Source: an uncultured virus (IMG/VR IMGVR_UViG_3300011969_000080)
Taxonomy: Duplodnaviria > Heunggongvirae > Uroviricota > Caudoviricetes
Reading direction: 5' to 3' (one strand)
IMG/VR virus record: IMGVR_UViG_3300011969_000080
Length of the DNA: 64,000 bases
Below the pieces are notes generated by a model, which ran no database searches, was not told the origin of the DNA, and was given only the letters and a program-made list of their open reading frames with translations. The position numbers were made by a program, and so were the translations under genes. Position 1 is the first letter of the stretch. Every line of letters starts with the position of its first letter. This document shows, piece by piece, positions 1,554 through 63,167 of this stretch.

Positions 1554-1720
1554 CCGTTTCCGTAGGCACAGCTTCCGCCGTGCCGCTCCCCGTCCAGCCG
1601 AAGCTGGCGTAGGGGCCGCGTCGCTTCAGGAGACCAGGGTCCCCAGCGCAGCTGCACGCCACCCGAAGGTGGCCGATGTCTTACGGCTGCTTGCTTCGCC
1701 GGCGTCGCTCACGCCGCAAG
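1554..1720 (-). ncRNA. Putative omega-RNA scaffold / IS607-type right end of tnpB1
   Basis: Directly 3' of tnpB1: GTAAGAC, hairpin GCCACC-TTCG-GGTGGC, GAAGCG, CCCC..GACGGGGA, hairpin GGCACGGC-GGAA-GCTGTGCC, ending GGAAACGG, resembling actinobacterial IS607 ends. Confidence 0.6.
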
Positions 1721-3091
1721 AACAAGATCCCGCACCGTCGGCCCGGGCGGACTGCCCGAGCTTTCGGGTCGGGTCAGCCAGGCCCTGGCAAGGGCTGCCA
1801 GGTTCCGGGCTGCGTTCACATCACGGTCCAGGATCAGACCGCATTCCATGCAGTGGTACTCGCGCTCGGAAAGGGGCAGCTTGGCTTTCACTGCACCACA
1901 GTCCGAGCACGTCTTGCTGGATGGGTAGAACCGGTCGGCCCTGAATACGGCCGAACCGCGCTTGGCGGCTTGACGGGTCAGAATCTGCACAAACAGGCCA
2001 TACCCGTTGTCGCCGACGGACTTCCCGAACCGGTAGCCTTTCTTCCGGCGGGCCATCCCGCGCAGGCTCAGGGTCTCCACACCGACAACGTGGGCGTGCT
2101 CGGCGAGAGTGATGGCGAGGTGCTGCTGCCAGGTTTGCCGCTTGGATGCGGCCCGACCGTGCAGCTTCTGCACCCGGGCCAGTGCTTTCGCGTGCCGCCT
2201 GCTGCCAGGCGTGGTGCGTTGGAGCGCGCGCTGCGCAACGGCCAGGTCACCCAGCGCGCGGCGCAGGAACATGGGTGCGCCGATGTGGCCTACTTCGCCA
2301 GTCACGCCCGGCAGGGGCTTGTCGAGGGTGGCAAAGTGCCTGCCCATCCCGGCATCAACGCCTATGGCGTCGGCCCGTGGCGGTACACGGTGCCTGGTCG
2401 GCTGGGTTTTGGCGACGGGCAGGACCCGCATCTGCAAGGATGCCCACCAGTACCCGCCAGAGAACGAATACGCGACCTCCTGGACCTGGCCGCGCCCGTC
2501 CCGGATAAGCTTGGCGGCCCGCCGTCCGCGGTTGTCCTTCACGACTGGGACGCTCGAGAGCTGGACGGATCTGACGCGGCCGAGCCCGCGCCGCGCCGTG
2601 TTCGAGATTGGCAGCGCGAGCGCGCGGCCTCCGTCGGTGAGCCAGGCGGCGTCTTTCTCTTTGAAAGTGACCGGCACCAGGCCGGCGCCATCTCCGCGCT
2701 TCTTGCGGAACCGCGGGAACCGCGCCGACCCGGTCTTCCACTTCTTGAGCCCGTCAGCCAGCTGATGGGCTTGCCGATCCAGCACCAGGTACGGGACCTG
2801 CGCGTGCCAGGGCAGCCAGGCGCCCCGGTTCTCCCGGAGCAGCTCCTCCAGCCCGTACTTGTGCCACGACAGCGATGACGTGAGGTCCGCGTCGGGGATG
2901 CCGTAGGTCTTCTCCGCAGCCCGCTGGTCGAGGTTAGCTTTCACGTGGAACAGCAGAATGTTGTACGCGGCCCGTGCCGTGCCGCAGTACCCGGCAAGGA
3001 GCTCGACCTGAGCACGCGACGGGTTCAGGCGCAACTTCACTACCTGGGTCACGCCCTGGTCGGAACTGATGCGTGCGCGCGTGCTGTGCAT
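1709..3091 (-). CDS. tnpB: IS607-type TnpB RNA-guided endonuclease, intact, no adjacent TnpA
   Basis: N-terminal KLRLNP..GTARAAYN..KANLDQRAAEKTYG; RuvC motifs IGVDAG, VGVETL, DRDVNAARNL; Zn finger CSDC..CMEC. Confidence 0.92.
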   Translation of the reverse strand: MHSTRARISSDQGVTQVVKLRLNPSRAQVELLAGYCGTARAAYNILLFHVKANLDQRAAEKTYGIPDADLTSSLSWHKYGLEELLRENRGAWLPWHAQVPYLVLDRQAHQLADGLKKWKTGSARFPRFRKKRGDGAGLVPVTFKEKDAAWLTDGGRALALPISNTARRGLGRVRSVQLSSVPVVKDNRGRRAAKLIRDGRGQVQEVAYSFSGGYWWASLQMRVLPVAKTQPTRHRVPPRADAIGVDAGMGRHFATLDKPLPGVTGEVGHIGAPMFLRRALGDLAVAQRALQRTTPGSRRHAKALARVQKLHGRAASKRQTWQQHLAITLAEHAHVVGVETLSLRGMARRKKGYRFGKSVGDNGYGLFVQILTRQAAKRGSAVFRADRFYPSSKTCSDCGAVKAKLPLSEREYHCMECGLILDRDVNAARNLAALARAWLTRPESSGSPPGPTVRDLVLAA

Positions 3092-3117: not shown

Positions 3118-3342
3118 TCAGACTGCGTCTTTCCAGTCATCGTCCTGCCAGTCGGCGCCCTCGCCGTTCGCGGCGTGGAGGGCCTCGGTGGCGTTGACGA
3201 ACCGGGCCTCGGCGTCGTAGTAGGCGGCCTGGGCCTTGTCGTAGTCGCGGGGGCCGGACATGGTGTAGTCGTCGAGCGCGGCCCTGAGGGCAGTAGCGGC
3301 CCGCTCGCGTACTACCTCGAGGCTGGGCGGTGTGGTGGGCAT
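3118..3342 (-). CDS. Hypothetical protein
   Basis: ATG after TAAGGA; acidic helical 74 aa. Confidence 0.6.
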   Translation of the reverse strand: MPTTPPSLEVVRERAATALRAALDDYTMSGPRDYDKAQAAYYDAEARFVNATEALHAANGEGADWQDDDWKDAV

Positions 3343-3428
3343 GGCGTGTTCCTTACTCGTTGGGGCCCGGGGATGTGCCACCACCCCATACCGTGTGTGC
3401 CGGCACGTGCATCCCAACTAGGCACCCC

Positions 3429-3877: not shown

Positions 3878-4234
3878 CTAGGGGGTGCGTGTGGCGCGGG
3901 CCGCGGTGCGGGCGACATGAGCAGCGTGGCGCGGGCAGCCCACCGGCTGGCGGTCCGCCCGGGAAACATGCCGCAGGTACCACGCAGCGAACCCCACCCA
4001 CGACAGGACGAACACACCGTTCCCGGCGCGGGTGTCGGTGCGAAACGACCACCTGGTGAACGCGGACAGGGTGTCGTCGCTGGCGTGCTGGTGCAGGCTG
4101 TACGTTTCCATAGCGGCGCAGGTTGCCAGGGCGGCCACCCAGGCGATCCGCCACGGGGGCAGCTGGGCAGGCAGGGTTACGCTGGTGCGCGGACGCCGCG
4201 GCGATGCTGCCGTAGGGGCGAGGAGGGCGGTCAT
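3878..4234 (-). CDS. Small membrane protein
   Basis: ATG after GAGGAAG; two hydrophobic segments; promoter TTGCGT-N16-CACGGT at 4301-4274. Confidence 0.6.
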   Translation of the reverse strand: MTALLAPTAASPRRPRTSVTLPAQLPPWRIAWVAALATCAAMETYSLHQHASDDTLSAFTRWSFRTDTRAGNGVFVLSWVGFAAWYLRHVSRADRQPVGCPRHAAHVARTAARATRTP

Positions 4235-4390
4235 TCTTCTTCCTCACTGTGCTGGCGGTGTGTGACGCAGATCACCGTGGGCGCTACACCTCGCGACGCA
4301 AGGCCACTGCGGGATGCGGGATCTCGCGCAGGCGGGCACTGATTCCCGGGGTCAGTCAGCGGGGCGTGGCGGGCGGGTGCTACGCCAGGA

Positions 4391-5432: not shown

Positions 5433-6905
5433 CCCCCTCTATGATTTCGTTGTGATAACGGGAACACAGTTTGCAGCTGAACTGTTGACGAGTGTGGTTC
5501 CTGTTGTCGGCTGGAAGGGTTCAGCGTGCCGAGGTTGCCAGGCGGACCAGCGAAGAACCTGCCGCCATGCCCGAAGCCGGGGCACGCGCAGAGGCCGGTC
5601 GTCAAGGACGGCTCGTACGGGAAGCCGCCACGTCAGCTGTTCCGGTGCATCGGCGAGGTCGTCAACCAGAAGACGGGCGAGGTTCGCCAGTTCCACCGGT
5701 TCACGCCATCGCCGCCACGGCTGCTCCGGGAGTTCGCCGTGTGCGACAACTGCGACAACAAGGTTCGCCGCCACACCGGCCCGGTCAGCTCGCGCAGCTA
5801 CGCCTTCCCGGTTCGTGAGGTCGCCTCCGCGTTCGTCTCGGTCGGCACCGGCGCGTCCTACATGCAGGCAGCTGCCCGCGCTCGGGTCTCAGCCCACCGA
5901 CTCTTGGTTCGCAAGGACCAGGGCGGTGCCCTCGTAGCCGAGTGGCTCGACCTACTCGCACCCGTGGTTCTCGAGGCGTACGCGGAGGAAAGCTGGCCCG
6001 AGACGCTGGTGCTGGACAGCACGTGGTTCATGGCCGAGAACCCATGGACCCACACGCAGGAGCGGGCGTTCAGCGTCCTGGGCGCCTACGGCTACCCCGA
6101 CGGCGACGCTGCCGGCCGGCTGTGGGCGCTGCACGCGACGCACACCGCGGCACAGGCGGACTGGGAGACATTCCTGCGCGGTCTCGACCTCACCACACCA
6201 CCCAAGCTCGTCATCAGCGACGCCAACGCGTCCATCATCAACGCCGTGCGAGCCGTCTGGCCGGCCACCCCGGGGCCGAGCTTCCCCACGCCGTTCATCG
6301 CCCGCTGCGAGCTCCACCTTCACCGCAACGGGATGGAGCACATGGCCAAAGACCACATCGGCGGCTGGATGCACCCGCTGCGCAAGCGTCTGGGCTCCGC
6401 CTTCCTGCGCAGCGAGGGGTGGGACGAGCTGGTGGAGAAGGCCGACGGCTACATGCACACCGAGGCATGGCTGACCGACATCGCCGAGGTCCGGACCCAG
6501 GTTGCGGTGCGGCATCTGCTGCCCGCCCACCACTCGACCTCGGCGCTGGACCAGGCACTCGGCCGGGTCAGGGACTTCCTCTCCTCCCGCACCTTCGTCC
6601 TGCGCAACAAGCGACGCACCAACCTCGCGCTGGGTCTCATCCGCCTGCACCTCAACAGCGTTGACATCGAACGCAACTACGGGACGCGCCTGCGGGAGTA
6701 CCTCGATGCCCACGGTGGTGTTCTGCCCGCCCAGCGCTCCGGGAAGGACACCGGGGCAGGCCCGAGGACGGACCGCCAGCACCGGGTCCCAGCCTCGCTG
6801 CGCATCTGAGAACGCGGTCCGGCCCCCGACCACCCGGACGCATCCCTGCCCAGCCGAAATCGACCGTCAACCAGGGGACTTATCACAACGAAATCATAGA
6901 GGGGG
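5433..6905 (+). mobile_element. IS-A, 1473 bp, unclassified Mutator/IS256-like IS
   Basis: Perfect TIR CCCCCTCTATGATTTCGTTGTGATAA; 8-bp duplication GCCGGCGC at 5425-5432 and 6906-6913. Confidence 0.95.
5526..6809 (+). CDS. Transposase of IS-A
   Basis: Fills the TIR-bounded element; N-terminal Zn ribbon, VLDST, VISDA, CELH (CxxH), STSALDQ; homologous to 23590-24918. Confidence 0.88.
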   Translation: MPRLPGGPAKNLPPCPKPGHAQRPVVKDGSYGKPPRQLFRCIGEVVNQKTGEVRQFHRFTPSPPRLLREFAVCDNCDNKVRRHTGPVSSRSYAFPVREVASAFVSVGTGASYMQAAARARVSAHRLLVRKDQGGALVAEWLDLLAPVVLEAYAEESWPETLVLDSTWFMAENPWTHTQERAFSVLGAYGYPDGDAAGRLWALHATHTAAQADWETFLRGLDLTTPPKLVISDANASIINAVRAVWPATPGPSFPTPFIARCELHLHRNGMEHMAKDHIGGWMHPLRKRLGSAFLRSEGWDELVEKADGYMHTEAWLTDIAEVRTQVAVRHLLPAHHSTSALDQALGRVRDFLSSRTFVLRNKRRTNLALGLIRLHLNSVDIERNYGTRLREYLDAHGGVLPAQRSGKDTGAGPRTDRQHRVPASLRI

Positions 6906-7196
6906 GCCGGCGCAACGTCTGCTGTTGGGAGGTGAATGACCACGCGGCCTGGTCCGGGCGGGCCGCCCGGATCTCCTTGAGCTGCAGCATCTGTGACACC
7001 GCGCTGATCGACGTCCCGCGCATCCGCCAGGCGTCCCGCCGCTCCTGCAAACCTGCGTTGTACAGCTCGGCGTGCGCAGCACACATCGCCCCGAGAGCGT
7101 CACGCTGCTTGCTCGTTGGGTACAGCCGGAACTTGAACGCCCGCATCACGGTACTGACCGTGGGAGCCCGCCCCAAAACAGCAACGCGCCACCGGG

Positions 7197-8117
7197 CTAG
7201 GGCCCCACCTGGGCACGGAAGGGCCAGCTCGGCGGCACGGCCCCGGCGGCGGTGACGTAGTTGCAAGCGACGACGTGCTCCGCGCCCTGCGAGAACCTGT
7301 TTTTGATGTTCACCCCGTACCTGACCGGGTAAACGTGGACGATGAAGTCCCGATACAGCCCCTCGGTCAGCTCGGACTTGTCGATGACGACCATGAAGCT
7401 GGCGTGCTTGAGCGCGGCAAGACGGTCCCGGAGCTCGAGCTGCTCCTGGTCTCCGAAGGTCGCGCCGGCCGAGTACGTCTTCATGACCCTGGTGTACGGC
7501 GGGTCGACGTAGATGAACGTGTTCGGCTTGTCGTTGTCTTCGAGCACCCGGTCGTAGCTGCCCTGCCGGATGTCCGTTGTGGCGAGCAGCCCCGCGTGGG
7601 CTGAGCTGCGGAGGGCGGAGGCGTTGAGGGTCGTGTAGTGGCCGAACGGGACGTTGAACTCGCCGGCGGCGTTGAACCTGCGCATGCCCGAGAAGGCCAG
7701 CTGGTTGACGATGAAGAAGCGTGCGGCCCGCTGCCAGTCGGGGCAGCGTGCGAGGCCTCCCGCCCTGTCAAGGTTGCGGAAGTCGTAATACGCCTGGGCA
7801 CGCTGGTCGTGGGTGCCCCCGGGCCCAAACAGCGCGGAGACCGCGTCCACCGCGGTGAGAAACTGCGGGTCCTGCCGGGCGGCCACCCGGTAGAAATTGA
7901 TGAGCTCGCCGTCCCAGTCGTTGATGACGCTGTCCGGGTTCGCTAGGGACCAGTAGACCGCGCCCCCGCCGACGAACGGCTCCACGTACCTGTACCGCTC
8001 ACCGGCCGTGACAAAAGCCGGGTAGTGCGGGGAGAACCGCGCTATCTCGCGGCGCTTGCCGCCAGTCCATTTGAACAGCGGCGCGAGAGTGGCGGGGGCG
8101 GTCGGAGTCTTCGGCAC
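7197..8117 (-). CDS. dam: Dam-like (D12 class) DNA adenine methyltransferase
   Basis: KWTGGK, YVEPFVGGGAV, FNVPFG, YVDPPY; GTG start 8 nt after CACGGT. Confidence 0.9.
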   Translation of the reverse strand: MPKTPTAPATLAPLFKWTGGKRREIARFSPHYPAFVTAGERYRYVEPFVGGGAVYWSLANPDSVINDWDGELINFYRVAARQDPQFLTAVDAVSALFGPGGTHDQRAQAYYDFRNLDRAGGLARCPDWQRAARFFIVNQLAFSGMRRFNAAGEFNVPFGHYTTLNASALRSSAHAGLLATTDIRQGSYDRVLEDNDKPNTFIYVDPPYTRVMKTYSAGATFGDQEQLELRDRLAALKHASFMVVIDKSELTEGLYRDFIVHVYPVRYGVNIKNRFSQGAEHVVACNYVTAAGAVPPSWPFRAQVGP

Positions 8118-8518
8118 GCCCCGGGACCGTGGGTGCTCGGCCCGAAATGGCAACGCGCCGCCGGGCTAGAAGCCCCGGCTGAGCACGGGAGGGCCAGTGC
8201 GGCGTCACTGGCCCGCAAAAGATGGGGAGCACCGTGGGGTAATTGCATGATGCGCACGCGCCCCGTCTCGGGGTGACGGACGCCGCCCGCGCGCAGCTTG
8301 GCCCCCGGCCAGGCCCAGCGCAGGGCCGGAGGTTACCCCCACCCCCAGGCTCAGCCGCCTGAGCACCCGCGTCACACCCCTGCGCCCACGCGCCCGGGGA
8401 GTTCAGGCGCGGGCACCGCAGCGGCTGGGCCGGGGGCGGGGCACGACCACCTTGCCGGGCCAAGGCTCCGGACGAGGCGAACACCCACCCGTGTTCCGCC
8501 TACGCCCCGGAGAACCCC

Positions 8519-9583
8519 GTGCAGACCCTCTACGCCACCCGCCCTGTCGACCTCACCGACCCAGACGTAGGTCGGGGGCCGTGTGACCTCACCGCCCTGG
8601 TCGCCGACCTGCCGCTGTCCGACGTGGACGGCTGCCTGGAACTGCTCGAGGCCGAGCGCGTGCCCTTCCTGCGGCAGGAGGGTGCCGAACCCGGCAGCGC
8701 GAAGCGCAACCTCGACGCCGACTTCTACAGCGAGGTCAACGACCAGCTGTTCACCCGTCGGAAGGCCTTGCAGGCGCAGCTGGCCCGGCTCGCCGCTACC
8801 GCCGAGGCCGACATGGCGCCGCTACACAACCTCACCGTCCACCGCACCACCTGCGCGGTCGAGTCGATGACCGAGCTGGTCGTCCGGTTCAACTACGGCA
8901 TGACCCTCAACTACGTCCGGCGCTTCACGAACTGCGTCACCGACGAGAGCGCCGAGGACTTCCAGAGCGCAGCGCTCGTGGGCCTGATGGCCGCGGTCAA
9001 CAGCTTCGACCCGGGCAAAGGCCGGTTCGGCTCGTGGGCGTACAAGCGCATCCAACACGAGGTGCTGCGCGCCGTGCGCGACGCCGACTTCGCCAACATG
9101 AACCAGCACGACTTCGCGCGCCGCCCCGACATCCTGCGCGCCAGGGCCAAGCTCACAGCGGAGGGCGTAGTCCCCACCCATCCGCTGGTGGCTGAGGAGG
9201 CCGGCGTGTCCGCCGAGATGGTCACCCGTGTCCTGGACGCCCCGCGCATCGAGTCGATGAACGTCATCGTGGGCCTGCCCGGGTCGGACACCGAGCTCGG
9301 CGACCTCATCCCCGACTGCGGCCCGGCCGTAGACGCCCAGGTCCTTGCCGCGGCGGACGTGCCCACCCTGGTTGAGCACGGCCTGAACTCACTGGATGCC
9401 CGCGAGCTGTACGTCCTGGCCCGCCGGTTTGGACTGGACGGCGAACCCGCCCAGTGCCTGACCTCCATCGGGGCCCAGCTACACCTGTCCCGTGAGACGG
9501 TCCGCCAGATTGAGTGCCGGGCGATGTCACAGCTTCTGCACCCGGTAACGCTGAGCAAGCTGGCCCGCCAGGGCCCGGCGTAA
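8519..9583 (+). CDS. Divergent RpoD-like sigma-70 factor
   Basis: Region 2 EDFQSAALVGLMAAVNSFDPGKGRFGSWAYKRIQHEVLRAV; region 3.2 ELGDLIPD; region 4 LDARELYVLARRFGLDG..SRETVRQIECRAMSQLLHP. Confidence 0.92.
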   Translation: MQTLYATRPVDLTDPDVGRGPCDLTALVADLPLSDVDGCLELLEAERVPFLRQEGAEPGSAKRNLDADFYSEVNDQLFTRRKALQAQLARLAATAEADMAPLHNLTVHRTTCAVESMTELVVRFNYGMTLNYVRRFTNCVTDESAEDFQSAALVGLMAAVNSFDPGKGRFGSWAYKRIQHEVLRAVRDADFANMNQHDFARRPDILRARAKLTAEGVVPTHPLVAEEAGVSAEMVTRVLDAPRIESMNVIVGLPGSDTELGDLIPDCGPAVDAQVLAAADVPTLVEHGLNSLDARELYVLARRFGLDGEPAQCLTSIGAQLHLSRETVRQIECRAMSQLLHPVTLSKLARQGPA

Positions 9584-10307: not shown

Positions 10308-11393
10308 TCAGTCGCCCATCGGCAGGGCTGGCGGGGTTCCCGCTACCGCCGCCTCGGCGTGCCGGATACGGCCTTCCAGCAGCGGAATGTACTCGGCGCC
10401 CAACTCACAGCCGATGAACGGGAAGCCGGCACCCACTGCGGCCACGCCGGTAGTGCCACTGCCCATAAACGGGTCCAGGACCGTGCCGCCCGGCGGAGTG
10501 AGCATCGCTATAAGCCATTCGGCTACGCGGGTGGGCTTTACGGATGGGTGATTGGGGACGCCGTCTGGCACACCCAGCCGCTTCACCTTCCCGATGGGCT
10601 TCTTGCAGTACATGAAGCCGGGGTCGCCGTCCAGGCCCGGTTCCCAATTGACCCGGGTGAAGAAGCGGGACGCCCCGCCAGTGTCGCCATACGTGGTGTT
10701 GGACACGACGCCCGGCTTGGTCTTCCCACGGCTCGGCCCGTCGTAGCCGCGGGTCTCCTGCCCGGCCTTCATCAGGCCGCTGGTAAGGACCCCGGACTGC
10801 CTATCCAGCACCCCCGCCGCGAAGTCGTCGAGCAGCACGTTACTGGGCCAGCGTCCGGCCTCCCCGACCCGGCAGGCGTCCACGAACAGCTCCCCCGTGC
10901 CGTACAGGGCCACATTCTCCTTGCAGGTGCCGGCACACGGTTTGCGGGCCAGCAGGATGGGCTCGTGGGCGGGCTTCATCGCGCCCGCCTGTGGGCTGCC
11001 GGTGCCGTAGAGCCACTCGGCCATGTCGCGTATCTCGAACCCGGCGAGGCGAATCGATATGCCCATCAGGTAGGCAGTTCTCGCTCCGGCGAACGCGGCC
11101 AGGAACCCGCCTGGCTTCAGGACGCGCAGCACCTCGGCCCACAGCGCCGGCGGTGGCACGAACCGGTCCCAGCTGTGGCCCATGAAGCCACGGCCTGTGG
11201 GCATCGCGGCGGGGTCGTCGGTCAGCCAGGACAGCATCACTGCCTTCTCCTGCGCCAGGCTGATGTGGGAGAGCCCATACGGCGGGTCGCAGACGACCGA
11301 GTCGACGGAGCAGTCGGGCAGCTCTTTGAGCCGGTCCAGCGCGTCGCCTACAAGGACGACGCCGGTGCGGAACTGGATGGTGGTGGGGGTCAT
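10308..11393 (-). CDS. N4/N6 DNA methyltransferase (beta-class order)
   Basis: SVDSVVCDPPY before HPSVKP..VLDPFMGSGTTG; leaderless ATG at 11393. Confidence 0.9.
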   Translation of the reverse strand: MTPTTIQFRTGVVLVGDALDRLKELPDCSVDSVVCDPPYGLSHISLAQEKAVMLSWLTDDPAAMPTGRGFMGHSWDRFVPPPALWAEVLRVLKPGGFLAAFAGARTAYLMGISIRLAGFEIRDMAEWLYGTGSPQAGAMKPAHEPILLARKPCAGTCKENVALYGTGELFVDACRVGEAGRWPSNVLLDDFAAGVLDRQSGVLTSGLMKAGQETRGYDGPSRGKTKPGVVSNTTYGDTGGASRFFTRVNWEPGLDGDPGFMYCKKPIGKVKRLGVPDGVPNHPSVKPTRVAEWLIAMLTPPGGTVLDPFMGSGTTGVAAVGAGFPFIGCELGAEYIPLLEGRIRHAEAAVAGTPPALPMGD

Positions 11394-11724
11394 GGCGGGG
11401 ACCGTGGGGGCTGGGCCTAAAAGGGCACGGATCCGCTCCGCGGGCGAGCGCAGCACGAAGGGACGCTCGCGGTGAGCGTCCCTTCGGACAACCGGGCCTA
11501 TACCCGTAACACTGGTCAAATCGTCAAGGTGCGGTTCCCTGGGGTTCCGCGACGACGGGTGCCCAGCGGGGTGATAACCCCTACAGGTCCGCCGATACTG
11601 GCGGCCCCGCTGAACCCCCTTGGCGAGGCGGCACCCCCAACACACCGGCAGCTACCCGGCGGGCCAGTTCACGGCCTCGCTGATTACCACTGTGGGTGCT
11701 GCACGCGGCAGTGCAACCCCGGGC

Positions 11725-12405: not shown

Positions 12406-12698
12406 GGCCTCCACCATGTCGGCGCCAACGTGAAACGCAAGCGCCCTGCCCGCGGACCACGCGGGCGCACTCCCGTGTTTCCTGGCCGAGCCCACTACCG
12501 GCCCCGCCGCGGGGGCAGCACGAGGGCCCCACCGTGGCGGGGCCCTCGTTGGTAGAGCTCAGCGCCTCTCCCGGTGTGCCGGGGGTTGGTGCGCCGCTGC
12601 GATCCGACACCACCCACTGTGCGGGCCGAGACCGCCTGCGCAAGCAGTGCATGCGGGGCCGGCCCGGAAGCGTCAAGCGACCGCGGGGCGGGCCGGCG

Positions 12699-14233: not shown

Positions 14234-14352
14234 GTGGCCTACCGTTGGGGCTCCCGCGACGAGGACAAGGGGCAGCTGTGTGGCGGCTGGACTGAAACCA
14301 GAGTTGCCCTTATCCCGGATAACGGCTACTCCGGTGTCAGTTGACAGCGGGG

Positions 14353-14826: not shown

Positions 14827-14950
14827 GCCCTGTACCGTGGCCGCGCGGGGTGACAACGCAACCCCAGGCTGGCGTGCTCCCCAACTACGTGGGTACGAAA
14901 CTCTGCACCTGACCGGATCCGCGGGCAGGATGCCACAGGTCGGCGCCGGC

Positions 14951-15226: not shown

Positions 15227-15452
15227 GGGGAGCCTCCTGACGTTAGCCGGGAGGTGTTCCCGGCACCCACTACCGTGTCCGCGACAGGGGCTGCCGCAAG
15301 GGCTCGGGGCGAACATCTTCCGGGCCGCACCGCCGCCCGTGTCGAGTGTCCCGGCGGGCGCCGACTGCCCGGTATGAGATCTGCCGGTTAGGAACTATGC
15401 GATTCACCGGTTAGGGGGCCGCGAGCAGCGGTGGCGTGCCCCCGGCGCCCGG

Positions 15453-17604: not shown

Positions 17605-17675
17605 GTACACCACAGTGCGCGCACACGCGCGGAGCACAACCCCCTGAAAACAGCCACCCCTGCTGCCGCGACCCA

Positions 17676-24924: not shown

Positions 24925-25209
24925 CACTGTGGTGTGTACCGCGAAACACGGCGGAAGGTTTCCCCCGCGCCCACCCCGGAGTTGGTCCGGCTGTGCGATG
25001 TCCGCCCCGATGGGCCTACACGGGACCGTGACCACTACCGAACGAGCCGGGAGGCACCAGATGTAGCACCACCGCGCGACACTGGGAACACCGCACCGCC
25101 CACCCTGGGCGGGGCGGTGCTCTGCTGCCCGCTTGCGTTGTTGCCCAGGGCGCGCACAGTGCCTGCGTGAGAGGCCCGGATCCGCCGCGCCATCGGAAAG
25201 GCCCCCACC

Positions 25210-25689: not shown

Positions 25690-25842
25690 GGCTGGCGCGG
25701 CCCCGGGCTCACCAAACGCCGCCCCGCCGTGATCGCGGGGCGGTGTTTTCCTGCCGCCGCCGGGGCTGCACCCGGGCATTTGGCGCCCACAGTGTCTGCG
25801 TGAGAGGCCCGGATCCGCCGCGCCGCCAGAAAGGCCCCCATC

Positions 25843-26844: not shown

Positions 26845-26993
26845 GCAACAGGGCACCGTCGAGCACCGCCCCGCCTCAGCGCGGGGCGGTGTTTCGCTGT
26901 GCCGTGCTGGGCACTACTTGTCTTCTAGTCACCAGCGCCCACGGTCACCTAGCGAGAGGCCCGGATCCTCCGCGCCGGCAGAAAGGCCCCATC

Positions 26994-27410: not shown

Positions 27411-27523
27411 GGCGGCTGCGCCCCGCGCTCCGCAAAGATGCCGCTTGTCCGCGGGCCGGTGGCACCCACGGTGTCTGCGTGAGAGGCCCGGATCCGCCGC
27501 GCCGACAGGAAGGTCCCCCCATC

Positions 27524-28410: not shown

Positions 28411-28779
28411 GTGACCCCTCTTGGTGCATGCCCGCAGCCTCCTGTGCCACCCCCTGTCGTGGCGCTGCTCGCGGTGGGCCCGCCCGCCACGGTCCTGACG
28501 CTGCTCGCCCTGGACGGGGCACACATGCTGACCACGCTGCCGCTATCGGTTTGGCTGCTCGGCGCCGCGCTGCTGTGGTTCCCTCACCCGTTGTCCCTAA
28601 CCGCAGTCTTGACGGACGCCCACCGGGACGCGATCCTGCCAGGCTGGACAGGACTGGCCCGTATCCCCCGCGCCGCCCTGCTGCTGCCCGCCATGCTGGC
28701 GCCCGGGCACCCCGCTGCGGCGGCGACGGCTGCGAACCTGGCCGGGCTGCTCGCGGCGCTGTTCCTGCTGGTTGCGTAA
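28411..28779 (+). CDS. Membrane protein
   Basis: GTG 7 nt after CACAGT; hydrophobic. Confidence 0.55.
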   Translation: MTPLGACPQPPVPPPVVALLAVGPPATVLTLLALDGAHMLTTLPLSVWLLGAALLWFPHPLSLTAVLTDAHRDAILPGWTGLARIPRAALLLPAMLAPGHPAAAATAANLAGLLAALFLLVA

Positions 28780-28847
28780 GGGTGGCAGGCGCCCACAGTG
28801 ACTGTCGAGGGCACGGACCTGCCGGGCCTCAGAAAGGTTCCACCGCC

Positions 28848-32315: not shown

Positions 32316-32745
32316 GGAGATTGGTCAGCAGCCGCTGACCAATCTCCCAGGGGACCTCAGCGGTTCGGGCAGGTGTTGGGGAGCACAGGGTGGCGTCCAA
32401 GGACGGCGCCCGTTGGCGCCGCTGCACTGAGGTAGGGGCCGCCCCCACCCGGCACAAGCGACGGCCCTGGTGCAGTGTGCTCGCGCCGAGGGTCGTCGCC
32501 GTGTCGCCGGCGGGCCCTACAAGGGAGCGGGGCGCCGACGTTGTCCGTAGGCCCGCGCGGGCGTGGGGGACACCCTGGCGCGGCGGACGCCCTGGATTAT
32601 ACACCCGGACGGGCGGGTGGGGTCCCGGGGGGCGCGCGGCGCCAGCGGCCCCGGAAATGAGTACAGCCCAGCCCCTTGTCATCGGCGCCGCAGCCGACAC
32701 GGTACTCGTTGGTCCGGCGAGCGCCGGCCGCTTAAGGAGCCCCCT

Positions 32746-33633: not shown

Positions 33634-33728
33634 AACCCGCCCACGTGGCTACGCTTTGAAAGTGCCGCCTCCCCCGGGCCTTGTCCTGGGGGAGGCGGCG
33701 CCCACAGTGGGGTGGGGAGGAGGCAACC

Positions 33729-34505: not shown

Positions 34506-35076
34506 GTACCCTAGTCGGGGCGGGCAGGGTTCCGCTTGAGCAGCCGGGGCGTGGGCCAGCCGATGAGGCCGAGCTCATCGAACAGGGTTGCGGCCCCGCC
34601 GGGGGGCGCCACCGAGGCTGGTAGGTGTGGGCCGCCGGGTTTGTGTTCTGGCGCCGGGCCACAACAGTGTCCTGTGAGCTGGCGTGTGCTGGCACCCGAA
34701 GGAGCCCCACCATGGTCCAGCCCGAAGACCACGGCCCCGCAGGCCTGCTACGGCCATCCGCTGCTGTGCTCGCTGCTCGCACTGCCGAGCTGCACGAGAA
34801 CCGCGATCTCATCGAGGGTTCCCCCGAGCACCTTCTCGCCAGCCTTGCCGGCGTCACCGTCGAGGACCTGCGCCGCCTCGGCGGCATCTGACCCACCGGC
34901 GGCCGGTGCCGCCCTGCTGTGGGCCATTTTGGCAAAGTATGCAGTACGGGGTTGCCCTCAGCGTAGTAGCGCGCACGGTACCGAGCATGTCACCCACGAA
35001 AAAAGCGCCGCGAAGGCCGACAAGTGAGTGCCGTCTGGAGCTTGTCCCGGCCCCACCAGCACCCACGGTGGCTGCC

Positions 35077-45220: not shown

Positions 45221-45760
45221 GCCGCGGCGGTTGGCGGGCCCGGCCCAAACGGCCACGTCGACGCCCCTGAGGCCGTGCCGGCACCCGGCGGCCCGCCACA
45301 CCCTGAAAACCCGCCCAGCGGGCTCCTGGACCCCTTCCTGGCCCTGTTTGGTGGAAGGCCCCGGCGGTCTGGACTTTCCCCGCAGCCTGTGGTACACGCG
45401 CCGCCCCTACGTCGGCCCCGGGTGCCCCGTACCCCACCGCGATGTACCTGAACGAGGACAACCGCTTTTGTCCCCGAACGAGGACACGCGGGGGCGCCCC
45501 TAGCGGCCTACGGCGACCTTGCCGGGCTCCGCGGGTGGGAGCTGCTAACTCTGAGTTAGCAGTTGCCGCCGGGCCGGTGCCGTACGTTCTGGGGCGGACA
45601 GGCGGTCCCCCACGGTGGCCGCCACCTGTGGTGTCAGGAAGACCCCCGGAGTTGCCGGAACCGACGCCACCGCGCTGCCCGCGACACCCCCAGACAGTTG
45701 GGGAGCACGGGGTGTCACGGCCCGCTTGTGTTAGCCACTGCGGCGCGCACAGTCACCCCT

Positions 45761-49785: not shown

Positions 49786-51104
49786 TTAGGCCGCGTGAGC
49801 GGTTTGGCGAAGGGCAGTTCCTGCCCTCAAAATGTTTATCGCGCCAACAACGTCGGCGTGACCTGTGAACCCACACCGCTGGCAGGTGAACACGGCCTGA
49901 GATGGCCTGTTCGCTGCTTCGCAGTGCCCGCACTCAACGCAGGTGCGGGAAGTGTTGGCGGCCGGTACCGGAACAGTCTCGCGTCCAGCCTTTTCAGCTT
50001 TGGCGGTCAACACACTCAGGAACAACCCCCATCCCGCGTCTAGTATGGCTTTGTTCAGGCCCGACTTCGCGGCCTGACCGTTCGGCAGGTACTGCCCCGG
50101 GTTGTCCGGATCCGGCCTGGGCTTAGCGCGCTTGGTCATGTTCCGGATCCGCAGGGATTCGTGGCAGATGACGTCGTGGTCTTGCACGAGTTTCAGGGCA
50201 GTTTTGTGAGCGTGGTCCAGGCGCCGTAACCGGATGGTCCGGTGTATCGCAGCGACCCTCTCGGCGGCTTTCCTGCGCCGGGCAGACCCGCGCTTGCGAC
50301 CAGACAGCACCCTTTGGGCGGCGGCCAGCTTGACCGCAGCGGCCTTCCCGAACCGCGGGTTGGGCAGGAACTTGCCCTCAGAGGTAGTTGCAAACGACGC
50401 CACACCCATGTCAATGCCCGTGATCGCGCCTGAGGGCGGCAATGGTGCCGGGGCCACCACGAGCGGGATGACCACAAACCAGCGGGCCCGCCGCCCCCCT
50501 CTATGATTTCGTTGTGATAACTGGGGCCGCGCAGCACGTAGATCCCTTGTGGCACAAGCCTTTCGCCAGGCCGGCGGCCGGATCTATCACAGTCAGATCA
50601 TGGAGGGGGCCGCCGCCCCGACCCCTCGCGCTTCACGCTGACCTGGCCCAGGGCGGCTCCCTCAGGCAGCGCCCGGTGGGGCCGAACCCGGACGTGGCCG
50701 ACGCCCATCACGTACAGACGCCTGCTCTCCGGGCGGAACTTGATCCCGTTCCCGTGGCGGAAGTCCACGCTGCCAAACCGGGCTGCGGCGCGGAACCTTG
50801 GATACCCCGGCGTCTCCCCGGCCTTTACCCGGCGGAAGAATGCCGCGAATGCCTTGTCCAGTCGGCGCAACGTCTGCTGCTGCGATGTGGCCGACCACAC
50901 CCCCTGGTCCGGGCGGGCCACCCGGATCTCCTTGAGCTGCAGCATCTGCGACGCCGAGCTGATTGACTTCCCACACACCCGCCAAGCGTCCCGCCGTTCC
51001 TGCAAGGCGGCGTTGTACAGCTCGGCGTGTGCCACGCACATCTGCCCGAGAGCGTCACGCTGCTTGCTCGTCGGGTACAGCCGAAACTTGAACGTCCGCA
51101 TCAC
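49786..51104 (-). pseudogene. tnpB: tnpB3, close paralog of tnpB2, interrupted by a 115-bp MITE
   Basis: Removing 122 bp restores a 1197-nt ORF (KREGSGRRARWFVV); RuvC D/E/D intact. Confidence 0.93.
50495..50609. mobile_element. MITE-A, carrying the IS-A TIR
   Basis: Left end identical to the IS-A TIR; variant right TIR; TSD CCGCCGC. Confidence 0.9.
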
Positions 51105-51378
51105 CCCACTGACCGTGGGCGCCCCCTGCCGGCAGGACAACCTGGTAAACGGCGGCATGACGGCCCGCGAACGCCGGAGGGGGCCACCCCCGCCCTCCCG
51201 GACCCTGTTCGGCGCTAGTGGGACTTGCGGGCGCGTGGCAGGCACTGATCGTGGCGCCTACGCGCTCGGGGCAACGACGGGCGAGCACGCACAGGGCGGT
51301 GCGGGTAGCCGCCTCGCTGGGCAGACTACCTAGCCGGCGGCCAGTCTGTATCGCCAGCCCGCCAACGAGCATGTTCAG

Positions 51379-54323: not shown

Positions 54324-54562
54324 GTGCTTCACTGTGAGCGCCGGAGCGAGCGACGCAAGGGGCCACGGCTCCCTCATTTGACACCGTCGGCCCACGCGGC
54401 GGGGGCGGCCGCGCCGCTGTCGGGGGTTCGCGGGTGCGGCCCACGGGGTGTGACGCAGCTCACAATCCAGCCGCGCCTGGCGGCCTCGTGGCCTTTCTAG
54501 TAGCCACCCCCACAGTCCCCTGATGTGAGACGGAACGGCCGCCTCGCCGGGAAGGCCCTAGC

Positions 54563-58981: not shown

Positions 58982-59089
58982 TCCGCGGGCGCCTACGCCG
59001 CCGCACCCCTGTTGGGTTTGACACGCCGCCCACCACGGTCCCACCAGACAGGCCACCCTGGCCCGCACCCCCGCACCCTGGAGCTCCAA

Positions 59090-60628
59090 GTGGCACGTTC
59101 GGTAGGCATTGACCTCGGTACCACCAACTCGGTAGTTGCCGTCCTCGAGGGTGGGCAGCCCACCATCATTGCCAACGCCGAGGGCGGGCGCACGACGCCA
59201 TCCGTTGTTGCGTTCTCCAAGGACGGCGAGGTGTTCGTCGGCGAGGTCGCCAAGCGGCAGGCCGTCACCAACGTTGACCGGACGATCCGCTCGGTCAAAC
59301 GGCAGATCGGCACCAACTGGACCCAGAAGATTGACGGCAAGACGTACACCGCCCAGGAGATCAGCGCCCGCATCCTGCAGAAGCTCAAGCGTGACGCGGA
59401 AGCGTACCTGGGCGAGGACGTCACAGACGCCGTGATCACGGTCCCGGCGTACTTCGATGACGCTGAGCGCCAGGCGACCAAGGAGGCCGGTGAGATCGCG
59501 GGCCTGAACGTCCTGCGCATCATCAACGAGCCCACCGCTGCGGCGCTCGCCTACGGCCTGGACAAGGGCAAGGAGGACGAGCTCATCCTCGTCTTCGACC
59601 TCGGCGGTGGCACCTTCGACGTCTCGCTGCTCGAGGTCGGCAAGGACCCCGACGACGGCTTCTCCACCATCCAGGTCCGCGCGACCAACGGCGACAACCG
59701 GCTGGGCGGCGACGACTGGGACGACCGCATCGTCGAGCACCTGGTGGCCTGCGTGAAGAACGCACACGGCATCGACCTGACGGGCGACAAGATCGCCATG
59801 CAGCGTCTGCACGACGCCGCGGAGCAGGCAAAGAAGGAACTGTCCGCGGTGTCGAGCACCAACATCAGCCTGCCCTACCTTTCCATGACCGCAAACGGGC
59901 CAGTCCTCCTGGACGAGACCCTGACCCGCGGGCACTTCGAGCAGCTCACCGCAGACCTGCTCGAGCGCGTCAAGGAGCCGTTCCGCCAGGTCATCCAGGA
60001 CGCCGGCATCGGCCTCGCGGACATTGACCACGTCGTGCTTGTCGGCGGGTCCACCCGGATGCCCGCCGTCGTGACAGTGGTCACCGAGCTCACCGGCGGG
60101 AAGGCCCCCAACAAGGGTGTCAACCCCGACGAGGTTGTTGCTCTCGGCGCCACCCTGCAGGCGGGCGTCCTCAACGGCGAGCGCGAAGACGTCCTCCTGA
60201 TCGACGTGACGCCAATGTCCCTGGGCATCGCCATCGCCCATGGCAGCGTACGGGACCGGATGAGCAAGATCATCGAACGCAACACGGCCATCCCGACCAA
60301 GCGCTCGGAGGTGTACACCACGTCGGAGAACAACCAGACCTCGGTCCTCATTCAGGTATTCCAGGGGGAGGACGAGACCGCCAGCCGCAACACCGGCCTG
60401 GGCACCTTCGAGCTCGACGGCATCGCGCCGGCCCCCACGGGCGTGCCCCAGATCGAGGTCACCTTCACCATCGACGCCAACGGCATCGTCCACGTGTCCG
60501 CCAAGGACCTGGCCACCGGCCGGGAGCAGCACATCACCATCTCGGGCGGCTCGGCAACGCCGGGGCACGAGCTGGCGCGCATGGTCCGCGAAGCCGCAAG
60601 CGGCACCGTTGACCGCTGGAACGGGTGA
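59090..60628 (+). CDS. dnaK: Hsp70 chaperone DnaK, C-terminally truncated (512 aa)
   Basis: [46 protein letters not shown]. Confidence 0.95.
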
Positions 60629-61358
60629 CGGCGCCGTGGGTACGCCGTGGTCCCGGTTCCTCGATGCCCCCCGTGGGACCATCGGGCGGGCCCTAGACGA
60701 CCTGGCGGCCGCTGCCGCTGAGACGCCCACTGAGGATCTGACAAGCGCGACGCCCGCAGAAGACGCCCTGGCCATCGAGACTCCACCCGCGGGCGCAACC
60801 AGCGCTGAGCCGGTGGAAGACGCCCCGCCGTGTCCCGACCTGGCCGAGGAGATCACCGTCGAGGCCCCCTGTGAAGAAGAGGGCCCGGGGGAGTACGTCG
60901 AGGCCGCCCACCCAGACACCACCCGCGCCGGCGAGCTGGCCCGCAAGCTGGAAAGGGAGCTGGAAAGGGAGCGCGCCGAGTACGCCAACTACAAGCTGCG
61001 GGTGGACCGCGACCGCGACCTGCAGCGCGACCTGGCGGTTAGCGGCGTGTTCCAGTCGGCGCTACTGCCCGTGCTGGACGACATCCACCTGGCGCGCCAA
61101 CATGGCGACCTCACGGACGGTCCCGGTGGTGCCATCGCTGCCAAGTTCGAGGGACTGGTTGACCGCCTTGGCCTTCGGCAGTTTGGGCAGGCCGGCGACG
61201 TGTTCGACCCGCGAATCCATGAGGCGCTCATGCACACCCCGGCCGCAGACCCCGGCGCCCCCTCAGTGACCACAGTCGTGCAGGTGCTGCAGCCCGGCTA
61301 CCTGATGGGCGAGCGGGTCATCCGCGCTGCCCGCGTCGCCGTGGCGGACCTGCCGTAA
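60609..61358 (+). CDS. grpE: Nucleotide exchange factor GrpE (start uncertain)
   Basis: [37 protein letters not shown]. Confidence 0.93.
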
Positions 61359-61385
61359 CACCCCACCCAGAGAGGGGCGACAACG

Positions 61386-62285
61386 ATGGCCAGCCAGGAC
61401 TTCTACACGATCCTCGGCGTCCCCCACGACGTCACAGGGGACGGCGTCAAGAAGGCGTACCGCCAACTCGCCCGCAAACTGCACCCCGACCACAACCCCG
61501 GGGACGCCGCGGCTGAAAAACGGTTCAAGGAGATCAGCGCGGCGTACGCCACCCTGTCCCGCCCCGAGGCGCGCAAGGCGTACGATGCCGCGCGTCAGGC
61601 GCCAGCACCCTTGCCCTACACCGCCGACCCCGTGTTTGACGACGTATTCAGCAGCCTGTTTGGCGGGCGCGCCCCCCGGTATGGGAACCTAGAAGACCTG
61701 CTTAGCGGCCCACCCCGGCGTGTCGGCCCTCGTCCAGGCGCCGACGTGCAGGCGCACGTCACGCTGCCCTTCCGCGACGCGGTTGAGGGCGCAACGGTGA
61801 CGCTGAGCACCGAGGACGGCGCCAGAATCACCGCGCGCATCCCGGCCGGCGTCAAGAACAGCCAGAAGATCAGGCTCCGCGGTAAGGGCGACCCCGGCGA
61901 ACGGGGCGGCCCGGCCGGCGACCTCCTGCTCACCGTGAAGGTGGCCACACATCCAGTGTTTGGCCGCACCGGCAACAGCCTGACCGTTGACCTGCCGGTC
62001 ACCTTTGCCGAAGCCTGCCTGGGGGCAACGGTGCGGGTGCCCGTGCTGTCTGGTGCCCCCGTCAGCGTCAGGATCGCCGCCGGGACAGCGGGCGGGCAGG
62101 TACTGCGCGTCAAGGGCCGGGGTGTTGTCACCGGTGAGCGCACAGGCGACCTGCTGGTCCGGGTGCGCGTGGTGGTCCCCCGGCAGCTGTCTGACAAAGC
62201 CCGCGAGGCGCTCGGGGTGCTGCGTGCTGAGGACGCTGCCACAGACCCCCGCGCAGACGTATTTGCGCACGCCACAGAGCGCTGA
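61386..62285 (+). CDS. dnaJ: DnaJ co-chaperone (no zinc finger)
   Basis: J domain with HPD; C-terminal domain IPAGV..IRLRGKG..GDLL. Confidence 0.92.
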   Translation: MASQDFYTILGVPHDVTGDGVKKAYRQLARKLHPDHNPGDAAAEKRFKEISAAYATLSRPEARKAYDAARQAPAPLPYTADPVFDDVFSSLFGGRAPRYGNLEDLLSGPPRRVGPRPGADVQAHVTLPFRDAVEGATVTLSTEDGARITARIPAGVKNSQKIRLRGKGDPGERGGPAGDLLLTVKVATHPVFGRTGNSLTVDLPVTFAEACLGATVRVPVLSGAPVSVRIAAGTAGGQVLRVKGRGVVTGERTGDLLVRVRVVVPRQLSDKAREALGVLRAEDAATDPRADVFAHATER

Positions 62286-62329
62286 CCAGCCCGCTTGCGT
62301 TATCCCCGTCAGCCCCCACAGTGAAGGTC

Positions 62330-63079
62330 ATGAACCGCACACCGCTAACCACTGAGTTCCTGACCACCCGCTACGTTCGGGACGGCGCCACCTTCGGCGA
62401 GCTCGCCGCCGAGACCGGCTGGTCCTCCACCAAGATCCGCAACGCCATGCACGACGCCGAGCTGCCCATCCGCCCGCGGGGTGGCGTGACCCTTTCTGGG
62501 GCCCTCACCGCGGACTACCTCGCCCAGCGGTACACGACCGACGCCGCCAGCGTCGTCGACATCGCCGCGGAGACCGGCCTCTCCGCCGCCACTGTCCTGC
62601 GAGCCATGCGCCGCGGCCGTGTGGCCACTGACGTCGCCCACCGGCGCGGGTCGCGGTACGCCAGCGTCCTCACTCGGGACTTCCTCATCGGGCTGTACAT
62701 GTTCGATGGGTCATCCGCTGCTGCGATCGCGTCAGAGGTTGGCTGCTCCACCCAGACCGTCCTGACGGCCCTGCGCAACCACGGGCTCACCGTCCGGGTC
62801 CAGAAGGCCCCGCCGATCGCCCGCGAGCAGCTGCTCGACCTGTACATCACCCAGGGCCACGCCGCCGGCTTCGTCGCGAACGCCCTCGGCGTCTCCCGCG
62901 GCACGCTCAACGCGGCCCTCATTCGCGAGCACCTGCCCACCCCGCGGCAGATGCGCCAGGCCCTGGGTGACACCGGGCTGACCGTTGCCGCGGCGTACCA
63001 GGCGCTGGCCACCTACGTCCCCACGGACGAGCCGGGCACCTGCGTGCTCGCCGCGGCGTGGGCCCTCGCAGCCCGGTAA
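62330..63079 (+). CDS. Protein with four tandem HTH repeats
   Basis: Repeated L...Y......IA.E.G.S...V. Confidence 0.75.
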   Translation: MNRTPLTTEFLTTRYVRDGATFGELAAETGWSSTKIRNAMHDAELPIRPRGGVTLSGALTADYLAQRYTTDAASVVDIAAETGLSAATVLRAMRRGRVATDVAHRRGSRYASVLTRDFLIGLYMFDGSSAAAIASEVGCSTQTVLTALRNHGLTVRVQKAPPIAREQLLDLYITQGHAAGFVANALGVSRGTLNAALIREHLPTPRQMRQALGDTGLTVAAAYQALATYVPTDEPGTCVLAAAWALAAR

Positions 63080-63167
63080 GGCCCGCTGCACGCCCATTGC
63101 GATTGCGTCACCCGCCTCCACGGTGTGTGCGGAGGCGCCCACCGCGCCCACTACTACTGGAGCCCCC

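Follow-up and report, generated by a model that had tools for sequence, protein, structure and literature searches.

A Sigma Factor of an Uncharacterised Actinobacterial Clade on Mobile DNA and the Promoter Class It Probably Reads

Introduction

Certain phages and plasmids carry sigma factors that drive their own genes, as do Bacillus pBS32 SigN and SPO1 gp28. The 64,000-nucleotide (nt) stretch IMGVR_UViG_3300011969_000080, referred to here as the window, is taken to come from a sizeable element, mobile or extrachromosomal, of a high-GC soil actinobacterium, be it plasmid, phage, or island. It encodes a sigma-70-family factor at 8519-9583 and contains a repeated two-box word that resembles a promoter. 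The locus raises two questions: whether this sigma factor reads these promoters, and whether a histidine at the position of Escherichia coli sigma70 Q437 determines the base that they carry at −12. A sequence-only reading of the window had answered both in the affirmative. The analysis described here is best explained by an alternative sigma factor that is borne on mobile DNA, belongs to an actinobacterial clade not yet characterised, and probably recognises the element's own promoters. The histidine is unlikely to be the cause of their −12 base.

Results and Discussion

A Promoter Class Occurs throughout the Window

The promoters had been proposed to have the form TTG-N16-CACRGT. Taken literally, this pattern has no match in the window. 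With a −35 box of six bases (TTGnnn-N16-CACRGT, equivalent to TTG-N19-CACRGT), 21 sites are found where 1.02 ± 1.01 are expected, and none of 100 shuffles reaches that number (shuffle maximum, 4); the class as such holds up, although not as it was first written. The spacing is strict, with no sites when it is one base shorter and two when it is one base longer. A looser pattern, TTG-N19-VACNGT, gives 35 sites, compared with 10, 1, 6, and 2 at control spacings that keep the codon phase. Every one of these sites has C at −10 and G at −8 and keeps the A at −11 and the T at −7; the base at −12 is C in 26 (74%), A in 5, G in 4, and T in none. In the frequency table, G at −17 and C at −16 each reach 82%, C at −14 and at −13 each reach 65%, and the other spacer positions are unconserved.

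The sites are spread over the entire window on both strands and point to the nearest open reading frame (ORF). Most of the 26 CACNGT sites lie no more than about 50 nt from the 5′ end of a correctly oriented ORF, and in nine of them an ATG or GTG stands exactly 7 nt past the −10 box. Because start codons so frequently lie at this distance, the arrangement implies that the predicted mRNAs would be leaderless. Among the nine sites with a base other than C at −12, about five look functional by position (four with A, one with G). Genes behind the motif include both DNA methyltransferase genes beside the sigma gene, dnaK-grpE-dnaJ, a HIRAN-domain gene, and TnpB-like genes; many other motif-headed ORFs have no family match. 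It is near certain that this element-wide promoter class is real. The promoter-like sites are as follows (from the motif scan, unless another scan is named).

3390-3417, minus strand: TTGGGA-N16-CACGGT, 48 nt before the ORF at 3118-3342
4274-4301, minus strand: TTGCGT-N16-CACGGT, before the ORF at 3878-4234
7157-7184, minus strand: GTG 7 nt after the −10 box, before a TnpB-like ORF (MRAFKFRLYP)
8126-8153, minus strand: before the D12 adenine methyltransferase gene, divergent from the sigma gene
11689-11716, minus strand: before the N6_N4 DNA methylase gene
12616-12643, minus strand: TTGCGC-N16-CACAGT
14241-14268, minus strand: variant site with A at −12 (AACGGT), ATG 7 nt after the −10 box (looser motif scan)
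14834-14861, minus strand: ATG 7 nt after the −10 box (predicted leaderless)
15272-15299, minus strand: TTGCGG-N16-CACGGT
17612-17639, minus strand: variant site TTGTGC-N16-CACTGT, ATG 7 nt after the −10 box (CACNGT scan)
25133-25160, plus strand: followed by the shared leader GCCTGCGTGAGAGGCCCGGA
26918-26945, plus strand: with a related leader
27445-27472, plus strand: with the shared leader, before a peptidyl-prolyl isomerase-like gene
28772-28799, plus strand: TTGCGT-N16-CACAGT
32676-32703, plus strand: TTGTCA-N16-CACGGT
33681-33708, plus strand: TTGTCC-N16-CACAGT
34952-34979, plus strand: ATG 7 nt after the −10 box
35042-35069, plus strand: ATG 7 nt after the −10 box
45726-45753, plus strand: ATG 7 nt after the −10 box
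51112-51140, minus strand: spacer longer by one base, GTG 7 nt after the −10 box, before a TnpB-like ORF
54331-54358, minus strand: ATG 7 nt after the −10 box, before the HIRAN-domain gene
59012-59039, plus strand: before the dnaK-grpE-dnaJ genes of the element
62295-62322, plus strand: ATG 7 nt after the −10 box, before the gene of a protein with multiple helix-turn-helix (HTH) motifs
63097-63124, plus strand: TTGCGA-N16-CACGGT

A near-identical leader, G[CT]CTGCGTGAGAGGCCCGGA with one variant CACCTAGCGAGAGG, follows four sites (25161-25180, 25794-25813, 26946-26965, and 27473-27492). The four copies lie about 50 nt ahead of their ORFs, and one of the sites has CTG in place of TTG at −35. These leader-sharing sites look like a cassette family with a common 5′ untranslated region.

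The Sigma Factor Lies outside the Curated Sigma-70 Groups

The features of the sigma gene that bear on promoter recognition are the following.

8154-8508, plus strand: intergenic stretch 5′ of the sigma gene, with neither the element motif nor a sigma70-consensus promoter (pattern scans)
8509-8512, plus strand: GGAG ribosome-binding site ahead of the sigma GTG (sequence reading)
8519-9583, plus strand: sigma-70-family factor gene, 354 amino acids (aa), KR-type clade (Pfam regions 2 and 4; matches to solved sigma factors)
9026-9070, plus strand: codons of the region 2.3-2.4 helix FGSWAYKRIQHEVLR, residues 170-184, gap-free against FSTYATWWIRQAITR; helix 170-189 in the model
9056-9058, plus strand: CAC codon of His180, at the sigma70 Q437 position (sequence reading)
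9488-9508, plus strand: codons of the region 4.2 residues S-R-E-T-V-R-Q, 324-330, predicted to read the −35 box (alignments, family invariance)

The ORF starts with GTG, 6 nt after the GGAG. Its product matches Pfam Sigma70_r2 (PF04542) at 3e-12 (46.6 bits, cut-off 24) and Sigma70_r4 (PF04545) at 2.7e-9 (36.8 bits, cut-off 24.1); region 3 is weak in this protein (0.011, sub-threshold) and clear in its relatives (6.6e-9). At E ≤ 0.01 it matches 71 distinct sigma sequences of solved structure, the top match being SigA (1.2e-16). The AlphaFold2 model, for which the family alignment served as input, has a mean pLDDT of 82.6, and its best Foldseek matches are SigA/HrdB chains in initiation complexes. 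It is near certain that the ORF encodes a sigma-70-family factor with regions 2, 3, and 4.

Assignment to a known group is a different matter. The nearest NCBIfam models, cyanobacterial SigC/SigD, RpoS, and RpoD, give 57-79 bits against cut-offs of 354-779 (for SigC, 79 bits against 554), and none of the RpoD/SigA/SigB/RpoS family models is passed. The FliA/WhiG model TIGR02479 (40.4 bits, cut-off 189.6) and the SigB/SigF/SigG model TIGR02980 (53.1 bits, cut-off 234) also fail. Because only the generic superfamily model TIGR02937 is passed, the protein is placed, by its sequence, outside every curated sigma-70 group. Two specific assignments were considered and rejected. The extracytoplasmic function (ECF, group 4) class was ruled out since a region 3 segment is present beside regions 2 and 4. 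Groups 1 and 2 were rejected since their conserved helix YATWWIRQAITR is replaced by WAYKRIQHEVLR in the window, the family form being WA(Y/F)K(P/R)IQREVLR.

The window protein was aligned with HMMER to three solved chains, two of SigA and one of RpoS. The segment rfgsWAYKRIQHEVLRAVRD falls opposite kfstYATWWIRQAITRAIAD with no gap inside the 15-mer and a one-residue gap just ahead of it (GKG-RF versus KGYKF), and a profile of 36 family members gives the identical register. In numbering that we take to be that of E. coli sigma70, Trp173 corresponds to Y430, Lys176-Arg177 to W433/W434, Gln179 to R436, His180 to Q437, Leu183 to T440, and Arg184 to R441. In region 4.2, LSRETVRQIE aligns with VTRERIRQIE, so that R, E, R, and Q are retained; none of the 36 aligned family members departs from S324, R325, E326, R329, and Q330. 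The sequence-only reading had placed His at Q437, Leu at T440, and KR at the tryptophan dyad and had noted that region 4.2 keeps RE..RQ, and on these points of alignment it was correct. The model places His180 midway along helix 170-189.

Upstream of these regions, residues ~23-60 (window 8585-8700) form an N-terminal segment, CD[LF]TALV..LPLS[DN]V[DE]GCLEL, that is common to close relatives. It is modelled as confident helices (pLDDT 87-96) and has no family match.

A Large Actinobacterial Clade

When the 8000 candidates sharing most words with the window sigma in a large protein collection were scored, at least 139 relatives were found at E ≤ 1e-5. Among the matches listed, the next relatives are P0002 (82% identical) and P0003 (68%). 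Relatives are chromosomal in many actinobacteria; the plasmid, phage, and viral-contig collections searched contained no close relative. The clade is recognised by the helix WA(Y/F)K(P/R)IQREVLRAVRDAD and an N-terminal N..LF..R motif, both of which the window protein has, and an alignment of 36 members has 40 invariant columns. In the tree the window sigma nests within the KR-type branch. The clade is large, unnamed, and actinobacterial and has no curated family model. The literature searched on Q437H, on sigma factors of actinobacterial conjugative elements, and on GACGGT/CACGGT boxes yielded only unrelated papers and no description of the clade or its promoter. One member stands in a different setting, adjoining flagellar genes (FliF, FliE, rod protein, FliD) in an Ilumatobacter chromosome (L143, 2-8375), yet it lacks a FliA/WhiG score.

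The Promoter Class Accompanies the Clade in Relatives

Sites were next counted in the DNA surrounding homologues; as the motif had been derived from the window, these counts are independent data. There were 160 homologue loci in all, 32 of them (619 kb) from the Thermomonosporaceae genera Actinomadura, Spirillospora, Actinoallomurus, and Bailinhaonella. The 32 loci contain 143 TTG-N19-VACNGT sites, about ten of which are one conserved stretch within the sigma coding sequence and are to be discounted, as against 25, 16, 16, and 18 when control spacings are used; for the remaining 128 loci the figures are 214 and 72-90. The Thermomonosporaceae consensus is TTGCC-N17-(CCG)GACGGT-C. Counts for forms of this consensus in six complete genomes of the family were as follows.

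G001 (complete 9.3 Mb Spirillospora chromosome), TTGCC-N17-GACGGT: 21 in total, 1 in the reversed control; 3 inside the 20.8 kb sigma locus and 1 about 4 kb beyond it
G001, TTGCC-N17-CACGGT: 7 in total, 1 in the reversed control; 2 inside the sigma locus
G001, TTGCC-N17-TACGGT: 3 in total, 1 in the reversed control; 2 within 9 kb beyond the sigma locus
G001, TTGCC-N17-AACGGT: 3 in total, 0 in the reversed control; 1 inside the sigma coding sequence and 1 about 15 kb before the locus
G002, TTGCC-N17-SACGGT: 19 in total, control 6; 6 within ~40 kb around the sigma gene
G003, TTGCC-N17-SACGGT: 8 in total, control 4; 1 in the sigma locus
G004, TTGCC-N17-SACGGT: 9 in total, control 7; none near the sigma gene
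G005, TTGCC-N17-SACGGT: 17 in total, control 2; 4 within ~24 kb around the sigma gene
G006, TTGCC-N17-SACGGT: 25 in total, control 2; 7 within ~42 kb around the sigma gene

Co-occurrence of sigma gene and motif in related replicons, which had been put forward as a check on the pairing, is seen in two forms. Sites cluster strongly around the sigma gene in four of the six genomes, and in 9 of the 32 Thermomonosporaceae loci a same-strand site such as TTGTCG-N16-GACAGT occupies a conserved spot immediately ahead of the sigma ORF, where 0.058 are expected per locus. Such an upstream site is the pattern that an autoregulated alternative sigma factor would show. From these comparisons the sigma family probably reads the TTGnnn-N16-VACNGT promoter class. 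The claim that this particular sigma reads these promoters is therefore backed at the level of family pairing; its other part, that His is the feature matching C at −12, fares less well, as described below.

In Spirillospora, an island of ~45 kb (L107, chromosome ~1,913,000-1,958,000) contains the sigma homologue together with most of the genome's TTGCC-N17-SACGGT sites, and matching regions occur at L110, L117, L118, and L102. Its genes include a TraG/TrwB/VirD4-like coupling ATPase, NERD-domain, DnaJ-domain, Lon_C, and transglycosylase-like genes, and TnpB. Islands of this type are probably integrative conjugative elements with their own sigma regulon. The genome of L110 (G006) also has three TTGCC-N17-CACGGT sites within 7 kb (8,112,944-8,119,348), far from the sigma locus, which may mark a second small island or a satellite on the same promoter code. 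The closest fetched relatives (L001 and L003, 52-57% identical) and L020 are loci of mobile-element flavour, with SNF2 helicases, NERD, DnaJ-domain, NlpC/P60, T2SSE-type ATPase, UvrD, and extra sigma-like genes. The extra sigma-like or region 3 genes lie a few kilobases from the sigma homologue (L003, 12187-13161, minus strand; L020, 4328-5497 and 15885-16727, plus strand), hinting at multi-sigma cascades.

Proposed Mechanism and the Question of the Reader

In the mechanism suggested by these data, the window sigma, together with host core RNA polymerase, would recognise TTG(Y/S)nn-N16-(GCnCC)CACRGT. Region 4.2, through R325, E326, R329, and Q330, would read the −35 TTG as sigma70 does, region 2 would capture two invariant bases, A at −11 and T at −7, and the helix with Q179, H180, and L183 would be turned towards the −12 pair. 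Transcription would start about 7 nt past the −10 box, in many cases at the start codon, so that the mRNAs would have no leader. Exclusion of T at −12, together with C at −10 and G at −8, would be a property of the whole family, whose members have Arg at the residue equivalent to Q437 and Leu at the one equivalent to T440. Because the window sigma gene lacks the motif, it would first be switched on by a host sigma factor or regulator and then drive the rest of the element.

Several observations weigh against recognition of these promoters by the window sigma. No copy of the promoter word is present in the 365 nt upstream of its gene, so autoregulation is not seen here; a scan for a sigma70-consensus promoter around the gene also found nothing. 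The contig from which the window comes is at least 133 kb long (the identical protein occurs on a 133,593 bp contig), so that a further sigma gene could lie outside these 64 kb. Beyond the Thermomonosporaceae, enrichment of the motif is only ~2.7-fold, and a site upstream of the sigma gene is found in 3 of the 117 remaining loci, about chance level. Even within the family, two of the six complete genomes (G003, 8 against a control of 4; G004, 9 against 7) show no clustering, and the islands that do are mutually syntenic, so that they represent few independent cases. Finally, in the synteny comparison the window shares almost no gene but the sigma with any of the 160 homologue loci.

The promoters could instead be read by another sigma factor, whether the host's principal one, a host copy of the family, or a second element sigma located outside the window, with the gene at 8519-9583 serving a narrower regulon. 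The missing motif upstream of that gene fits this idea, as do the retention of A at −11, T at −7, and the TTG −35 box, as in housekeeping promoters, and the extra sigma-like genes in some homologue loci; relatives being chromosomal in many actinobacteria, the host could own one. Promoters of principal sigma factors, however, typically have T at −12, which occurs in 0 of the 35 window sites, all of which have C at −10 and G at −8. The motif is also rare in complete genomes and concentrated around the sigma gene rather than genome-wide, and no other region 2-bearing sigma gene is present among the window ORFs scanned. This alternative is unlikely.

Residue 180 and the −12 Base

The remaining question is whether His180 is an adaptive, Q437H-like switch that reads C at −12, matches CACRGT, and insulates the element's promoters from other sigma factors. 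As background the idea is sound: E. coli sigma70 Q437H, like T440I, is reported to suppress a T:A to C:G change at −12, and Q437H favours C there (PMC2613000). The histidine does sit at the Q437 position, by alignment and profile, and its CAC codon is carried by the main, long contigs of three soil-metagenome runs of one study, two of which may have been where this DNA originated.

The ancestry of the residue points the other way. In the 36-sequence alignment, all 35 other members have Arg at this position, and Leu occupies the T440 position with hardly an exception. The helix pattern matched 119 of 120 listed proteins, giving Arg in 117, His in the window alone, and Gly in P0012; a looser pattern shows Arg in the unmatched protein, P0026, as well. 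Of the 160 fetched loci, 153 allowed the residue to be called, with Arg in 152 and His in one (L030, at ~1454, a distant freshwater member). A maximum-likelihood tree of 60 members places the window sigma as sister to the Arg-bearing P0002 and then to the Arg-bearing P0003, with support of 100/100 at both nodes. Descent from glutamine was rejected, since the ancestral state by alignment and tree is Arg, not Gln. His180 is real in the assemblies and is, on this reading of the alignment and tree, a one-transition change from Arg (CGC to CAC) confined to this tip.

Short minor contigs of related sequence in the same soil runs have G at both 9055 and 9057, the latter making the codon CGC (Arg). 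Codons 9053-9058 are CAA CAC (Gln-His) in the window and CAG CGC in these contigs, which makes two neighbouring G/A differences, and CAA is a rare codon for a sigma gene with 90% G or C at third codon positions (GC3).

The bases at −12 were counted for each set of loci.

Window (His): A 5, C 26, G 4, T 0
Nearest fetched loci, L001 and L003 (Arg): A 2, C 4, G 2, T 0 (n = 8)
Thermomonosporaceae loci (Arg): A 20 (about 10 being the coding-sequence site), C 43, G 80, T 4
Remaining loci (nearly all Arg): A 47, C 62, G 97, T 37 (T at control level)

The C bias of the window is stronger than that of the Thermomonosporaceae loci, where G prevails, and this favours a role for His180. Yet C is the commonest base in the nearest Arg-bearing loci (4 of 8 sites) and is found in 43 of 147 Thermomonosporaceae sites, so that CACGGT promoters are present in Arg-bearing islands. 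The histidine is a tip change beside an 82% identical Arg-bearing sister, and there is just one informative His-bearing case, as the contig of the second carrier, L030, examined for covarying promoters, is too short (3.2 kb) and has no usable sites. The proposal that His is a Q437H-type change matching C at −12 is thus not borne out, the ancestral residue being Arg and Arg-bearing relatives also using C. It is quite unlikely that His180 is the cause of the −12 C; it may sharpen a preference for C that does not require it. Avoidance of T at −12, as judged from these sequences, is a family trait that fits Arg together with Leu. With a single lineage to go on, the stronger C bias of the window could be a consequence of His or simply drift of the element's promoter set.

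The last alternative, that the repeated word is a regulator-binding site or repeated mobile DNA, is very improbable: several sites head TnpB-like genes and four share a conserved downstream leader, but the spacer is unconserved in sequence and exact in length (21 sites at 19, 0 at 18, 2 at 20), the two-box geometry equals that of −35/−10, and the sites are oriented with downstream genes, often at a fixed 7 nt from the start codon.

Comparison with Known Sigma Factors

The window sigma resembles RpoD, SigA/HrdB, and RpoS of groups 1 and 2 in domain order (regions 2, 3, and 4), and these give its best sequence and fold matches. Shared features are R-E..R-Q in region 4.2 and, in the promoters, the TTG −35 box, A at −11, T at −7, and the 16-nt spacer. 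In contrast, the WWIRQAIT helix becomes YK(R/P)IQ(R/H)EVL in the clade of the window sigma, with loss of the W433/W434 pair and deletion of one residue before the helix; the −10 box is VACNGT rather than TANNNT, and scores fall far below the equivalog cut-offs.

SigN of pBS32 and gp28 of SPO1 likewise pair a mobile element's own sigma factor with matching private promoters. They differ from the window sigma in lineage and promoter consensus, and the hosts of the latter are actinobacterial.

The E. coli Q437H and T440I mutants (PMC2613000) concern the same two helix positions as the Arg or His and the Leu of the clade, whose promoters avoid T at −12. Unlike these mutants, the clade proteins are natural, have an ancestral Arg and a strongly diverged helix, and, in Arg-bearing members, accept G, C, and A. 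Because the surrounding helix has diverged so strongly, applying the E. coli −12 rule to this clade is an extrapolation.

Other Genes of the Element

The window encodes a phage-type DnaB, a replication-initiator-like protein, a RecB-like nuclease, two methyltransferases, three TnpB-like genes, a FolC-like ligase, and DnaK-GrpE-DnaJ; most of its ORFs scanned have no family match. No capsid, terminase, relaxase, or type IV secretion system (T4SS) match was found among the ORFs scanned in the 64 kb, and no tRNA.

On either side of the sigma gene lies a DNA methyltransferase gene that is preceded by a motif site: 7197-8153 (minus strand) of the D12 class and 10308-11645 (minus strand) of the N6_N4 class. 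No restriction enzyme partner for either was recognised in the window. Three TnpB/IS605 OrfB-like genes or remnants lie at 1709-3091, ~6883-7150, and 50598-51245, all on the minus strand, and two of them are headed by the promoter word with a GTG 7 nt after it; insertion-sequence genes appear to be wired into the element's regulon. The dnaK-grpE-dnaJ set (59012-62285, plus strand) stands behind one promoter site. At 538 aa its DnaK is short, and the profile match stops at position 513 of 625, the C-terminal lid seemingly being missing. The multi-HTH protein (62321-63079) was considered as kin of the extra sigma-like genes beside homologues, and no significant likeness was found.

Implications

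A sigma factor carried by the element would allow its genes to be expressed on their own schedule, apart from the main programme of the host. If the pairing of sigma family and promoter class holds, it provides a compact, predictable code for annotating gene starts, leaderless ones included, and for delimiting actinobacterial islands; it would also explain the control of the ~40 kb islands with TraG/VirD4-like genes in Actinomadura and Spirillospora, and it would offer naturally orthogonal sigma/promoter pairs for engineering high-GC actinomycetes.

A broader proposal, which is doubtful at present, is that the clade and TTGnnn-N16-VACNGT form a widespread, undescribed module private to conjugative and other mobile elements of actinobacteria, of which the window would be a natural Arg-to-His specificity variant, shifted at −12 from G/C to almost pure C. 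If true, the two forms would supply two orthogonal sigma/promoter systems ready for use and would put the Q437 rule to a natural test beyond the group 1 sigma factors. An Arg/His polymorphism at a position of such classic genetic history opens a clean and cheap experiment.

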